Origin: Candidatus Dojkabacteria bacterium
GTDB lineage: Bacteria > Patescibacteriota > Dojkabacteria > B142 > OLB20
Direction of reading: 5' to 3'
Assembly (NCBI GenBank): GCA_020429395.1
Contig: JAGQLL010000025.1
Span: 810-45,929, forward strand
DNA length: 45,120 nt
Shown here: positions 30,993 to 35,484 of the stretch, one piece after another
Position numbering within the stretch: position 1 is the stretch's first letter
How the letters are laid out: each line of letters starts with the position of its first letter
Notes under the pieces: generated by a model
Seen by the model: only the letters and a program-made list of their open reading frames with translations
Database searches by the model: none
Told to the model about the DNA's origin: nothing
Position numbers and translations under genes: made by a program

Positions 30993-31673
30993 TCATGACT
31001 GAGTCGCTCGCAGAGCATCAGTTATTAGACTTAGTTCGTGAGATATAACTTGTAAGTTTGGGTCGGGTGCATGTACCGGATGTAGGTCAATTAGAGCTTC
31101 AGGTTTCCCGTTATAGTAACAAGCATACAATTGTATTCCAATCTCTTTCCGAATTAATCTTTTGAGATCTTTTAAACCGAGAAGTTCTCCATTTCTCCTT
31201 TGTATTTCAACTCCACCTTGAAATGTAAGTACTCTAACCACTTCTCCAATGTGTCCTTGTTCTCTAAGAATGTCATTTAGGGCTAACCACTGCCAGGATA
31301 TTGGCTTGTTTTCTCGTGGTGGATAAAGAAGAGGAGCTAGTGCTTCGAAATTAGATAATTCAAAACTTCCTTGTACAACTGCACCCGCATCTTCCACAAT
31401 TTCCTCTATCCTATCAATGAAGGGCATACCTGTCTCTCTGACTAACAAAAATGGTAAAGGTTCTACCGTTTGATGTGAAGAATCAATAGAAGGGGCAACA
31501 GCAAAATATCTTTCCCTATATGCGTCTAGAGGTCTATCAAGGTTAACATAAAATGGGTGCATCCGAATGTGATCAGGTGAATTCCCTATCTCCGTCTCTA
31601 TATGACTTCCATTCATAAACATCTGAAGCTCAAGTGGTATAGCAGATATCAACTCATTGCACATTATTTTCAT
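30993..31673 (-). CDS. Hypothetical protein with a possible nucleoside-diphosphate-kinase-like domain; GC-rich relative to neighbours
   Basis: By-eye similarity of residues ~70-226 to the NDK fold. PFLLVRETGMPFIDRIEEIVEDAGAVV compares with tFimiKPDgv..glvgeIi.rfe..Gf.i. GEVVRVLTFQGG compares with GPVvamvweG, and LIRKEIG with tiRgdfG. HPVHAPD (nt 31062-31082) compares with NiiHGSD. It overlaps the upstream ORF by 11-20 nt. Confidence 0.4.
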   Translation of the reverse strand: MKIMCNELISAIPLELQMFMNGSHIETEIGNSPDHIRMHPFYVNLDRPLDAYRERYFAVAPSIDSSHQTVEPLPFLLVRETGMPFIDRIEEIVEDAGAVVQGSFELSNFEALAPLLYPPRENKPISWQWLALNDILREQGHIGEVVRVLTFQGGVEIQRRNGELLGLKDLKRLIRKEIGIQLYACYYNGKPEALIDLHPVHAPDPNLQVISHELSLITDALRATQS

Positions 31674-33498
31674 TAATAAAAATTATGTCTGCATTATTCA
31701 TAGATTTAGCTATGTGTGGATCATGATACTTTTTCCAGAATCTGAATTTTTCTCGAATTTCGTTTTCTCCGAGATTGAGAAACCTCTCTTTGTTTTTTCC
31801 GGCATTAATCAGATTATTCAGTCTTGTCTTTTCAGATGCCCATGTAAAAATTTTCAAATCAATTAAATCAAGCACTTCTGGGATAGCATATAAGTAAGCG
31901 AGATCAATCAGCAGTATGTTTCGATGCTTTGTGGGTATTACTTCGTGAAGTTCAAGCGTGTCTGTTCTGAAAGCAATCCCATTATTTCGATATTTTGTTA
32001 GATATTGATAATTTTTTGCAATATTTTCTGGGAGGTTTATGTATTTGGAATTTTTACTACTTGTGAACTTAGTGATCAAAACCGGATCTAGTTTTGCAGT
32101 TCTTCTGGTAAATTTATCAAATAGTGGATAGTAAATATTTTTAGAATCCTTAAATGCTTTAATTGTCTCTGTTAATTTCTCAATATAAAAATATCCTTTT
32201 GGAAAATCATTGCTCAATACCCTTTCTTCGAATGGCATTACAAACCCATCCCCTTCAAGGAAAATACACTCCCGTTCATTTTTAAGTGACTTTTGTAACT
32301 CTCTTGAAATAATATGTGTTTTTCCAGTGCCCGAATAACCTGCGATTCCGATTATGATTCGTTCATCACTATATTTTTTTAAAAAACAATTGACTCTATC
32401 TAAGAGTACGCTATTGTCGCAAATACATTTTAATTTATTCTCTTTCAATGATTCATATCTATCAATCAATTCTTCAGATTCCTGAGATTTTAAATAAATT
32501 CTTATTACTTTAGATAGATTACTAATTGAGTAGGTTGAAAAATCTGTTTTTCCTAAAGAACTAGTACTTGATTGAAGTAAATCATGAACTTCGAAAACAA
32601 AATATGATTTAATTTTAGGATTGGATTTTACGAATTTAGCAATATACTTTGTTTCTAAATCCACTATAAAACTTGAATATTGGGTACTTGTTTTACTAAT
32701 CTCGTCTTTAGTGGCACTAAGTGTGGAATCTAAAGTAATTATTGGAAATGTCTTTGAGGTCTCATCTTTATCAGATAAACTAATTTTTGAAAATTCGTTT
32801 TGAATTTCTATAGTATGAAGTTTCTCTATTATATGTGTCGGGAAAACTAAGTCTCGTAATTGAAAATTATTTGAAAAAGCCCCACATACACCAAATAAAA
32901 GTATCGATCTTATTTCAAATCTATCAAGTTGTTCGATCAGTTCCTTCATACCACTTCCATAAAATCTGCTTAGATCAAACAATAAGGTGATTGATGTTTT
33001 GTTTTTAAAAGCATACGAATATCTGAGGAAGTCCAATGATTTAATAACGGTTGGTTTAAAAAACGGTCGTGACTCAATGTAACTTTTTACATCTGAAGGG
33101 TTGAAACTGATTATTATGTCTATATAAGCACCTTTGTAACTGAAGTTTTTTTTAGAATAGAGGTTTTGGTTCTGACTAATTTTGCTTTTGATTTTTATAG
33201 AATCCTGTCTTATTCCCAAAATTGAAAGTATCCTAGTCAATTGTATTAATCGTCCTTCTCCCAGAACATTTCCGATTTTAAGAATGTTCATATCTTCGAA
33301 ATATTCAAATACTAGTGATTTTTTAGAATCATCAAAAACTGACAACATTTTGATCTCAACTTTTGGTCTGTATTTCTGGATTTTAAAAATGAGTTCCTCG
33401 GGAATCTTTTTTATAATATAGTCAGTAGGATCAAATACCAAGTTATGATCAAGTGCTTTCATTAGTTTTACTGATTTCTTATCCATACTGCCTAACAT
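31654..33498 (-). CDS. Fusion protein: N-terminal nucleoside phosphorylase/nucleosidase-like (PNP_UDP-like) domain plus C-terminal uridine kinase/phosphoribulokinase-family P-loop kinase
   Basis: N-half: IRSILLFGVCGAFSNNFQLRDLVFPTHII and FIVDLETKYIAKF resemble DeoD/MtnN motifs (i.r.GscG....lrDvvi; vEMEaaai). C-half: Walker A IIGIAGYSGTGKTH (nt 32314-32352), LEGDGF, YYPLFDKFTRR, ILLIDLAYLY, DLKIFTWASEKTRLNNLI and ADIIF parallel Udk motifs. Confidence 0.6.
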   Translation of the reverse strand: MLGSMDKKSVKLMKALDHNLVFDPTDYIIKKIPEELIFKIQKYRPKVEIKMLSVFDDSKKSLVFEYFEDMNILKIGNVLGEGRLIQLTRILSILGIRQDSIKIKSKISQNQNLYSKKNFSYKGAYIDIIISFNPSDVKSYIESRPFFKPTVIKSLDFLRYSYAFKNKTSITLLFDLSRFYGSGMKELIEQLDRFEIRSILLFGVCGAFSNNFQLRDLVFPTHIIEKLHTIEIQNEFSKISLSDKDETSKTFPIITLDSTLSATKDEISKTSTQYSSFIVDLETKYIAKFVKSNPKIKSYFVFEVHDLLQSSTSSLGKTDFSTYSISNLSKVIRIYLKSQESEELIDRYESLKENKLKCICDNSVLLDRVNCFLKKYSDERIIIGIAGYSGTGKTHIISRELQKSLKNERECIFLEGDGFVMPFEERVLSNDFPKGYFYIEKLTETIKAFKDSKNIYYPLFDKFTRRTAKLDPVLITKFTSSKNSKYINLPENIAKNYQYLTKYRNNGIAFRTDTLELHEVIPTKHRNILLIDLAYLYAIPEVLDLIDLKIFTWASEKTRLNNLINAGKNKERFLNLGENEIREKFRFWKKYHDPHIAKSMNNADIIFINENNVQ

Positions 33499-35179: not shown

Positions 35180-35484
35180 GTTTTTTCTGGGAAATATTTG
35201 AGATAATAATCATCTATAGATTTCTGGAGTTCATCCACGACTCCATAACGCATTGCAATCTGAAGTGCAACAATTATTACATCTCTTACTTCACTTGCTA
35301 GGTGTTCTTTGTTTGGCTTACCGTGTTTAACTGATTTAACTCCGATTTTTTCAAAATGGTTGACTTGCTCTGCCACTTCGCCTGTTTCTTCTGCCAATCT
35401 GGTTACTATCTGGAAAGGATTATCATTTCCAAATCTATTATTCAAATATTCGTTAATTTTAATCAGTTTTTGGATATTATCCAT
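35176..35484 (-). CDS. MazG-like all-alpha nucleoside triphosphate pyrophosphohydrolase
   Basis: 102 aa. RLAEETGEVAEQV (EExxE) and LASEVRDVIIVALQIA (ExxD) are the metal-binding helices of the MazG/dUTPase-like superfamily. 4-nt overlap with the radical SAM gene. Confidence 0.65.
   Translation of the reverse strand: MDNIQKLIKINEYLNNRFGNDNPFQIVTRLAEETGEVAEQVNHFEKIGVKSVKHGKPNKEHLASEVRDVIIVALQIAMRYGVVDELQKSIDDYYLKYFPEKT

Follow-up and report, generated by a model that had tools for sequence, protein, structure and literature searches.

A 45,120-nucleotide stretch of the genome of a Candidatus Dojkabacteria bacterium (assembly GCA_020429395.1, contig JAGQLL010000025.1, positions 810 to 45,929; below, the window) carries four minus-strand genes at positions 30993–35484 that form one translationally coupled operon on the chromosome of this member of the candidate phyla radiation (CPR). 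Judging by its protein domains, the operon may encode a nucleoside/nucleotide-tailoring pathway, a reading to which we give a probability of roughly one in two. All recognisable domains have folds known for activity on nucleosides, nucleotides or pentose phosphates, and they retain the key catalytic residues. The open reading frames (ORFs), in the order of transcription, are as follows:

35176..35484, minus strand: MazG-like ORF, 102 aa; transcribed first
33479..35179, minus strand: ORF of a radical S-adenosylmethionine (SAM) enzyme with a putative B12-binding domain, 566 aa; GTG start
31654..33498, minus strand: ORF of a fusion of a nucleoside-cleaving domain with a kinase, 614 aa, or 610 aa with the second ATG (33486) as start
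30993..31673, minus strand: ORF with a nucleoside-diphosphate kinase (NDK) fold, called p226 below, 226 aa, or 223 aa with the second ATG (31664) as start; final gene of the operon

The ORF listing and direct reading of the junctions showed that every junction is overlapping. The stop of the MazG gene and the start of the radical SAM gene share 4 nt (GTGA, ...aaaacGTGAgac). The radical SAM and fusion genes overlap by 20 nt from the first ATG or by 8 nt, ATGGATAA, from the second one, and the fusion and p226 genes overlap by 20 nt or by 11 nt, ATGTGCAATGA, respectively. The second ATG was used for the fusion in the NCBI gene call (P0005, 610 aa) and for p226 in a database gene call (P0007, 223 aa). 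These coordinates and overlaps are exactly those given in an earlier note on this DNA, and the motifs listed there (CKGKCIFC at aa 287–294, LIIVGGPDV, EETGE...EVRD and HPVHAPD) were all found. The four ORFs were accepted as real genes because each of them has homologues elsewhere and the same overlapping order occurs in the independent contig L001. Scanning the window for promoters and terminators gave counts equal to the shuffled expectation. The GC content is 0.28–0.30 across the operon body (window 32001–35000) versus 0.33–0.36 in the flanks, and the low operon value could reflect horizontal acquisition.

The radical SAM ORF matched the Pfam model Radical_SAM (PF04055) with 38.2 bits, above the cutoff of 29.5. 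Two elements were located in its sequence:

34298..34321, minus strand: CX3CX2C [4Fe-4S] motif CKGKCIFC, aa 287–294; C287, C291 and C294 are invariant in the family alignment
34589..34873, minus strand: cobalamin-binding-type Rossmann region, aa 103–197, with AFSLL and VGGPD motifs; located by Pfam B12-binding and by the alignment with OxsB

The B12-binding model (PF02310) scored 21.9 bits over aa 103–197, below its cutoff of 32.1, and 18.8–30.4 bits in the relatives; SxL and GG motifs were seen in this putative domain by inspection. The best NCBIfam scores came from class B enzymes, among them ArsL (48 bits, cutoff 450) and HpnJ (43 bits, cutoff 578). Since all NCBIfam scores were far below the cutoffs, the enzyme lies outside every characterised family; no match to the viperin-family model was found in NCBIfam. 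PDB searches with the single sequences of the radical SAM, fusion and p226 proteins gave nothing useful, and family profiles were required. When a profile of four radical SAM sequences was compared with all PDB sequences, the sole significant match was OxsB (5ul2) with an E-value of 4.2e-9, and no further B12 radical SAM structure was found at E < 0.4. The match, 39 bits in two partial stretches, spans the cobalamin region (profile positions 106–238, OxsB residues 147–280) and the TIM-barrel region, leaving the N-terminal and C-terminal domains of OxsB unmatched. The earlier description of a radical SAM enzyme is borne out by the PF04055 score and the invariant cysteines, and the aligned cobalamin region suggests a B12-like Rossmann region, with PF02310 staying below threshold. 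Assignment to a characterised non-nucleotide family had been named as an outcome that would speak against a nucleotide-related role; with ArsL and HpnJ far below cutoff and OxsB as the nearest structure, no such assignment was obtained.

Among 5.8 billion proteins, the radical SAM family was represented by only four clusters. The N-terminal segment of approximately 80 aa (window 34940–35179, minus strand) is absent in the homologues of L001 and L004. It aligns to a giant ORF of the contig L008 (tblastn covers residues 7–549 of the window protein), which makes a GTG start overlapping the MazG stop plausible, and weakly to the protein P0004. This suggests that the extension may be an extra N-terminal module.

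The third gene of the operon encodes two putative domains:

32509..33321, minus strand: NP-I fold domain resembling a DeoD-type purine nucleoside phosphorylase (PNP), aa ~60–330; DeoD profile match
31654..32466, minus strand: P-loop kinase domain of the uridine-cytidine kinase (UCK)/PRK family, aa ~345–614, with the P-loop GYSGTGKT; UCK2/PRK profile match

With the single fusion sequence, the scores were below the thresholds both in Pfam (PNP_UDP_1, 21.5 bits, cutoff 25.1; PRK, 18.5 bits, cutoff 22) and in NCBIfam (udk, 34 bits, cutoff 180; HpnG, 19 bits, cutoff 187). Orthologues of the fusion were found in the contigs L001, L018, L007 and L011. An NP-I domain profile built from five orthologues matched the Bacillus DeoD PNP with an E-value of 1.8e-7 over 131 positions, and matched nucleosidases acting on 5'-methylthioadenosine/S-adenosylhomocysteine (MTA/SAH) and aminofutalosine with 3e-3. 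The motifs GxCGA, VELE and EVHD are aligned with GTCGA, VEME and TVSD of DeoD, and the ribose-binding E282 and catalytic D306 are invariant in the orthologues. By inspection, the GxxR motif (G80, R83) resembles G20/R24 of DeoD, while R87 and S90 have no counterpart (GVCGA). The N-terminal part of the fusion is thus predicted to be a nucleoside-cleaving domain of the PNP/MTA-SAH nucleosidase (MTAN) fold, either a phosphorylase or a hydrolase. The kinase-domain profile matched human UCK2 (E 2.4e-7) and PRK (E 3.9e-6). Its P-loop, GDxF motif and lid arginine are aligned with UCK2 (GGTASGKS; QDSF, which contains the catalytic Asp), and G387, G392, K393 and D417/F419 are invariant in orthologues. 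The DeoD and UCK2 profile matches and the kept catalytic residues uphold the reading of this gene as a PNP-like domain fused to a kinase of the uridine kinase family.

The first gene of the operon was attributed to the MazG group already from its single sequence (Pfam MazG PF03819, 22.9 bits, cutoff 22). In the PDB, a profile of three orthologues matched YpjD of B. subtilis (2gta) and the "nucleotide pyrophosphohydrolase" 5ie9 (E 4-5e-6). The acidic residues E32, E33, E36, E65 and D68 (EExxE and ExxD) are invariant across the three orthologues and are aligned with EE.GE and EE.GD of YpjD. The 102-aa protein is accordingly predicted to be an all-alpha nucleoside triphosphate (NTP) pyrophosphohydrolase of the YpjD type with intact metal-binding motifs, as the MazG assignment in the earlier note had it.

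For p226 and 26 members of its family, no Pfam or NCBIfam match was found, and a PDB sequence search with the p226 family profile was empty. Modeling using AlphaFold2 with a 26-sequence alignment led to a model with a pLDDT of 84.3 and a pTM of 0.83, which superseded an earlier weak model from a two-sequence alignment (pLDDT 66). In a Foldseek search against the PDB, the best 50 matches of this model were all NDKs (probability 0.98–1.00, target-normalised TM-score 0.42–0.67, approximately 160 columns), and the top structure matches in the viral library BFVD were NDKs as well. An hhalign comparison of the family with four NDK sequences entered by hand gave an E-value of 0.0024 with a colinear alignment over 112 columns. 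In this alignment, the near-invariant His of the HAPD motif (H201, counted from the first ATG of p226) corresponds to the catalytic His of HGSD in NDK:

31056..31085, minus strand: LHPVHAPDPN motif (family consensus LHHIHAPD) with the near-invariant His, aligned with the phospho-histidine of NDK

Further family motifs are PxPFLLxRPSG, YPV..P.SYxWL and K..IR..IG. According to the model, p226 is NDK-like in its fold and key residue and lies outside the canonical NDK family, representing a new family that has no model in the databases. The NDK-like assignment made earlier is thus correct for the fold and the aligned His; membership in the canonical NDK family was not found. Loss of the kinase, NDK or phosphorylase assignments would have spoken against the proposal, and all of them hold in profile or structure searches.

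The operon is also present in a second lineage, and portions of it were seen in two others. In L001 to L003, the same four genes are present in the same order with overlaps of 17, 8 and 8 nt and identities of 57, 49, 31 and 34%. The contig L004 contains the MazG and radical SAM genes and ends 44 codons into the fusion. In L018, the C-terminus of a fusion-type kinase (E 4e-57) overlaps by 8 nt with an NDK-like gene of 31% identity. Word-index searches missed orthologues with 31–34% identity, and these were recovered via genomic context and an exhaustive profile search. A lack of co-conservation was named in the earlier note as an outcome that would refute the proposal; co-conservation of the genes is evident from the L001, L004 and L018 loci and from fusions in distant phyla.

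The NDK-like family consisted of two clusters in the word-based search and of 28 proteins in the exhaustive profile search of 1.84 billion representatives. One member, P0022, is a fusion of the NDK-like domain with dCMP deaminase (Pfam, 2e-22). Two operons with family members were described:

L021:469-4588: overlapping operon of a methyltransferase, P0022, a PA0069/SplB-like radical SAM protein, a 194-aa all-alpha protein (L021_194) and a sugar-1-phosphate nucleotidylyltransferase
L019:2-2361: operon with the C-terminus of an L021-type radical SAM protein (blastp, 4e-14), followed by the NDK-like P0014 and an APH-type kinase

The L021 radical SAM protein contains the motif CPKNCQYC and matches NF033668 (PA0069/SplB-like) with an E-value of 3.6e-6. 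In L020, the family member P0010 also adjoins an APH kinase. In L022/L023 (L022:33-3601; L023:860-1857), the NDK-like P0020 is flanked on one side by a 97-aa gene similar to GTP cyclohydrolase I and on the other by a NUDIX gene and a methyltransferase gene, both convergent. The L022/L023 locus further encodes a 451-aa protein whose PcfJ-like match is weak. P0014 has an N-terminal all-alpha domain of approximately 200 aa which resembles L021_194. Compared with MazG, the all-alpha domain (P0014, P0016, P0017 and L021_194) gave E-values of 7e-4 with hmmsearch in a tiny database, 0.1, 0.09 and 0.004 with hhalign, and 0.11–0.34 with Pfam MazG, which is suggestive of a MazG-like domain. Taken together, genes for radical SAM enzymes, pyrophosphohydrolases, kinases and nucleotide metabolism are recurrent companions of the NDK-like family.

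A scan of the genome collection revealed radical SAM homologues of approximately 30% identity in Planctomycetota, Omnitrophota, Aadella and one Peribacteria-binned contig. Every one of these homologues is located inside an uninterrupted giant ORF, several of which are cut by contig ends; a scan of metagenomes added only one further giant ORF and one fragment. Besides the radical SAM domain, the giant ORFs contained the following:

L007:2-10351: >3450 aa; HAD, GT9 heptosyltransferase-like and GT4/GT1 domains
L011:1-11109: >3703 aa; NUDIX, SPASM-type radical SAM, cytidylyltransferase-like and HD domains
L008:3885-16190: 4102 aa; GHMP kinase
L009:4368-10979: 2204 aa; methyltransferase
L010:7527-12605: 1693 aa
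L015:2550-11834: 3095 aa; methyltransferase

A single polypeptide of L007, and likewise one of L011, has the radical SAM domain immediately before the nucleosidase and the kinase; in L009, only a nucleosidase comes after it. This fusion ties together the two middle genes of the operon. The HD domain of L011 scored 18.5 bits, below threshold, and no MazG or p226 domains were found inside the giant ORFs. Giant proteins of Omnitrophota have been described as heterogeneous enzyme mosaics (bioRxiv 10.64898/2026.06.07.730766), so their distal domains are weak evidence for a common pathway.

All these characteristics allow a pathway to be proposed. The radical SAM enzyme would abstract a hydrogen from the pentose (or the base) of a nucleoside phosphate and then rearrange this compound, as OxsB and HpnJ do, or alkylate/methylate it. 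MazG would set or strip the phosphorylation state (NTP to nucleoside monophosphate (NMP) and pyrophosphate), as a counterpart of OxsA for OxsB, while the PNP-like domain would form or cleave the glycosidic bond. Re-phosphorylation of the product could be performed by the UCK-like domain (nucleoside to NMP) and the NDK-like protein (nucleoside diphosphate (NDP) to NTP). The output would be a sugar- or base-modified nucleoside or nucleotide, with an antimetabolite, a cofactor or a polymer precursor as candidate uses. A more specific version can be offered only tentatively: the operon would represent a new class in which an OxsB-like B12 radical SAM enzyme that alters the pentose of a nucleoside phosphate by rearrangement or alkylation, a fusion for the glycosidic bond and 5'-phosphorylation, and an NDK-fold His-phosphotransferase that recharges the modified nucleotide make a new nucleoside analogue in ultra-small CPR episymbionts.

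Several observations weigh against a nucleotide-tailoring pathway. B12 binding by the radical SAM enzyme is inferred from a domain match below threshold, and the similarity to OxsB is modest, its 39 bits being on a par with the ArsL and HpnJ scores. No NMP kinase that would bridge NMP and NDP was found in the operon. In L008, L010 and L015, the radical SAM domain occurs without a detectable nucleosidase or kinase. The giant ORFs provide mixed contexts with many sugar-activation and glycosyltransferase domains, which fit a sugar product equally. Finally, conservation among the CPR loci could in part be shared ancestry, as few lineages are available.

The sugar-rich contexts point to the alternative that we regard as unlikely but as the best placed, namely a nucleoside-derived sugar. 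Here, the pentose would be modified while attached to the base, released by the PNP-like domain as free pentose or pentose-1-phosphate, phosphorylated and directed to a nucleotide-sugar/glycan surface route, and MazG and the NDK-like protein would only supply or clear NTP and pyrophosphate. In L007, the radical SAM–nucleosidase–kinase block is followed by a HAD phosphatase, GT9 and GT4/GT1 in one polypeptide, as this explanation would have it; L011 contains a cytidylyltransferase-like domain, L008 a GHMP sugar kinase, and the NDK-like L021 operon ends in a sugar-1-phosphate nucleotidylyltransferase. HAD genes are present near the operon in L001 and L004, and PRK, a kinase of sugar phosphates, is matched by the kinase profile nearly as well as UCK. 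However, the Dojkabacteria operon itself contains no nucleotidyltransferase, HAD or glycosyltransferase gene, no HAD homologue was found within the window, and the distal domains of the mosaic Omnitrophota giants carry little weight (bioRxiv 10.64898/2026.06.07.730766).

Clearance of by-products appears rather improbable. In this case, the radical SAM enzyme would act on an unrelated substrate (lipid, glycan or peptide), and the fusion would remove the inhibitory SAM-derived products 5'-deoxyadenosine and SAH and salvage the deoxyribose, like MtnN and MtnK. The NP-I domain does match the MTA/SAH and aminofutalosine nucleosidases (E 3e-3) as well as HpnG, and close proximity of radical SAM and nucleosidase domains, as seen in the fusions, would be advantageous for removing the products. 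A separate Pfs may be missing from the reduced genomes of CPR bacteria. Nevertheless, the NP-I domain is nearer to the DeoD PNP (1.8e-7) than to MTAN, and the catalytic Asp of the UCK family activates a 5'-OH, which is absent from 5'-deoxyadenosine and 5-deoxyribose. The co-conserved MazG and NDK-like genes would be left unexplained, as would the links of the NDK-like family to dCMP deaminase, NUDIX and GTP-cyclohydrolase-like genes.

The surroundings of the operon bear on a further alternative. The following features were annotated in the window:

30263..30973, plus strand: convergent alpha/beta-hydrolase (Pfam Hydrolase_4, Abhydrolase_1); 19-nt gap to the operon
30067-30154: tRNA-Ser(GGA), approximately 840 bp past the 3' end of the operon
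25482-29276, plus strand: 1,264-aa ORF with a TTG start; no Pfam match; acidic/Lys-rich with hydrophobic stretches
24330-25439, minus strand: Fic/DOC-domain protein with a C-terminal winged-helix or helix-turn-helix; 5.5 kb from the operon
23669-24328, plus strand: Vut_1 family gene (Pfam "putative vitamin uptake transporter"), adjoining the Fic/DOC gene
21335-21722, plus strand: RNase P RNA, bacterial class A (Rfam RF00010, 145.9 bits)

Genes 52–58% identical to the alpha/beta-hydrolase adjoin the operon in L001 and are located at most 2 kb away from it in L004, each of them beside a HAD hydrolase; the alpha/beta-hydrolase is a possible accessory component. The 1,264-aa ORF may encode a CPR surface or membrane protein. 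The remainder of the window is housekeeping, including enolase, iPGM, an SPFH protein, the RNase P RNA and ORFs of the size of ribosomal proteins, and the first ~20 kb is a tightly packed array of small plus-strand ORFs. No relatives of the operon were found in the IMG/VR, phage and plasmid collections.

A defence module, in which a chain-terminating nucleotide analogue would act against phages or the host and MazG would protect the producer, was proposed in the earlier note and is quite improbable. Its logic is like that of viperin–CMPK2 and of OxsAB, the maker of antiviral oxetanocin (PMC9204698). The low GC content of the operon (0.28–0.30), the nearby tRNA-Ser gene and the Fic/DOC gene 5.5 kb away are also in its favour. 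On the other hand, comparison of the four operon proteins with PADLOC-DB v2 gave nothing beyond one P-loop match of 11.7 bits (E 0.015), the radical SAM enzyme has no viperin-family match, the phage, plasmid and IMG/VR collections hold no homologue, and the neighbours are housekeeping genes with no integrase or other flanking defence genes. A defence island as the primary explanation was rejected, given the lack of a PADLOC match and the housekeeping context. Of the interpretation made in the earlier note, nucleotide modification is thus supported and the defence or chain-terminator variant is not, while a sugar end product is possible. The least credible reading of all is that an auxotrophic CPR cell uses the PNP, uridine kinase and NDK for plain nucleoside salvage and MazG for house-cleaning, the radical SAM gene being incidental. 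Every domain other than radical SAM has a housekeeping counterpart and CPR bacteria probably depend on scavenged nucleosides, but all four families are extremely rare and not universal in CPR (4, 2 and 2 clusters in word searches, 28 representatives in the exhaustive search), they diverge strongly from the housekeeping enzymes, below Pfam/NCBIfam cutoffs, and the radical SAM enzyme is the best-conserved partner and is fused to the nucleosidase and kinase in other phyla.

To our knowledge, the recognised radical SAM enzymes that rewrite nucleotides are few: besides viperin and OxsB, there is a small number of enzymes from nucleoside-antibiotic pathways, and all of them gave antiviral or antimetabolite chemistry. 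The operon is a compact, conserved and tractable four-gene candidate for new nucleoside chemistry. Its CPR host has a reduced genome of a kind associated with life on scavenged nucleosides, and the product may bear on the relationship between host and symbiont. The NDK-fold family, for which Pfam has no model, can be used as a handle for finding further such pathways, and the radical SAM–nucleosidase–kinase fusions suggest what one segment of the giant proteins of Omnitrophota and Planctomycetota may do. If the operon does represent a new class, the NDK-like family would be a general marker of undiscovered operons for radical-SAM nucleotide modification (L019, L021 and L022), and the same module would be hard-wired into giant proteins of these two phyla.

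The earlier note had recognised no described system in this set of domains. This agrees with the present comparison, in which an HD partner and a viperin-type radical SAM enzyme are absent and the accessory enzymes differ, and with the literature, where searches for the domain combination, for radical SAM proteins of Dojkabacteria and for NDK-like/MazG conflict systems brought up no account of such a system. Canonical Ndk (PF00334) shares its fold with p226, PFLLxRPSG being aligned with RTFxxIKPDG of NDK and HxPD with HGSD. However, the identity is 13–20%, a variable Arg takes the place of the Lys, and p226 has an extra N-terminal region of approximately 65 aa. The p226 family is, by contrast, rare and always occurs in specialised operons or fusions.

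Nucleosidases are combined with radical SAM enzymes or with kinases in several other pathways. MtnN and MtnK of the dihydroxyacetone phosphate (DHAP) shunt, which salvages 5'-deoxyadenosine and MTA, pair a nucleosidase with a kinase for SAM-derived nucleosides, and the operon has a comparable pair, with an NP-I domain that matches MTAN at E 3e-3. The operon domain is, however, nearer to the DeoD PNP, and its kinase is a P-loop UCK/PRK enzyme and not an APH-fold one like MtnK. The hopanoid (HpnH/HpnG/HpnJ) and futalosine (MqnE/MqnB) pathways also pair a radical SAM enzyme with an NP-I-fold nucleosidase. There, the nucleosidase removes adenine from an adenosyl adduct, and no counterparts of the UCK-like kinase, MazG and the NDK-like protein are present; no hopanoid or menaquinone genes were found near the operon. 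HpnJ, for which a sugar ring contraction has been proposed, is a non-methylase, as is OxsB, which performs the ring contraction of the deoxyribose of dAMP, dADP and dATP together with the HD phosphohydrolase OxsA (PMC9204698).

Viperin and prokaryotic viperins with CMPK2 resemble the operon in that a radical SAM enzyme rewriting the ribose of a nucleotide is coupled to a kinase. The operon enzyme, however, is of the putative B12-domain type, and its kinases are UCK-like and NDK-like instead of a CMP/UMP kinase. OxsB/OxsA of Bacillus megaterium, like the operon, pairs a radical SAM enzyme that has a cobalamin domain, a putative one in the operon, with a nucleotide phosphohydrolase. In that system, the partner is an HD enzyme, while the operon has the all-alpha MazG and no HD domain was found in it; the large N-terminal domain of OxsB has no counterpart in the radical SAM enzyme of the operon, and OxsAB lacks both the fusion of a PNP-like domain with a kinase and the NDK-like protein. 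In its way of working, the operon thus comes closest to OxsAB, with a conceptual likeness to viperin–CMPK2, yet it is a member of neither.

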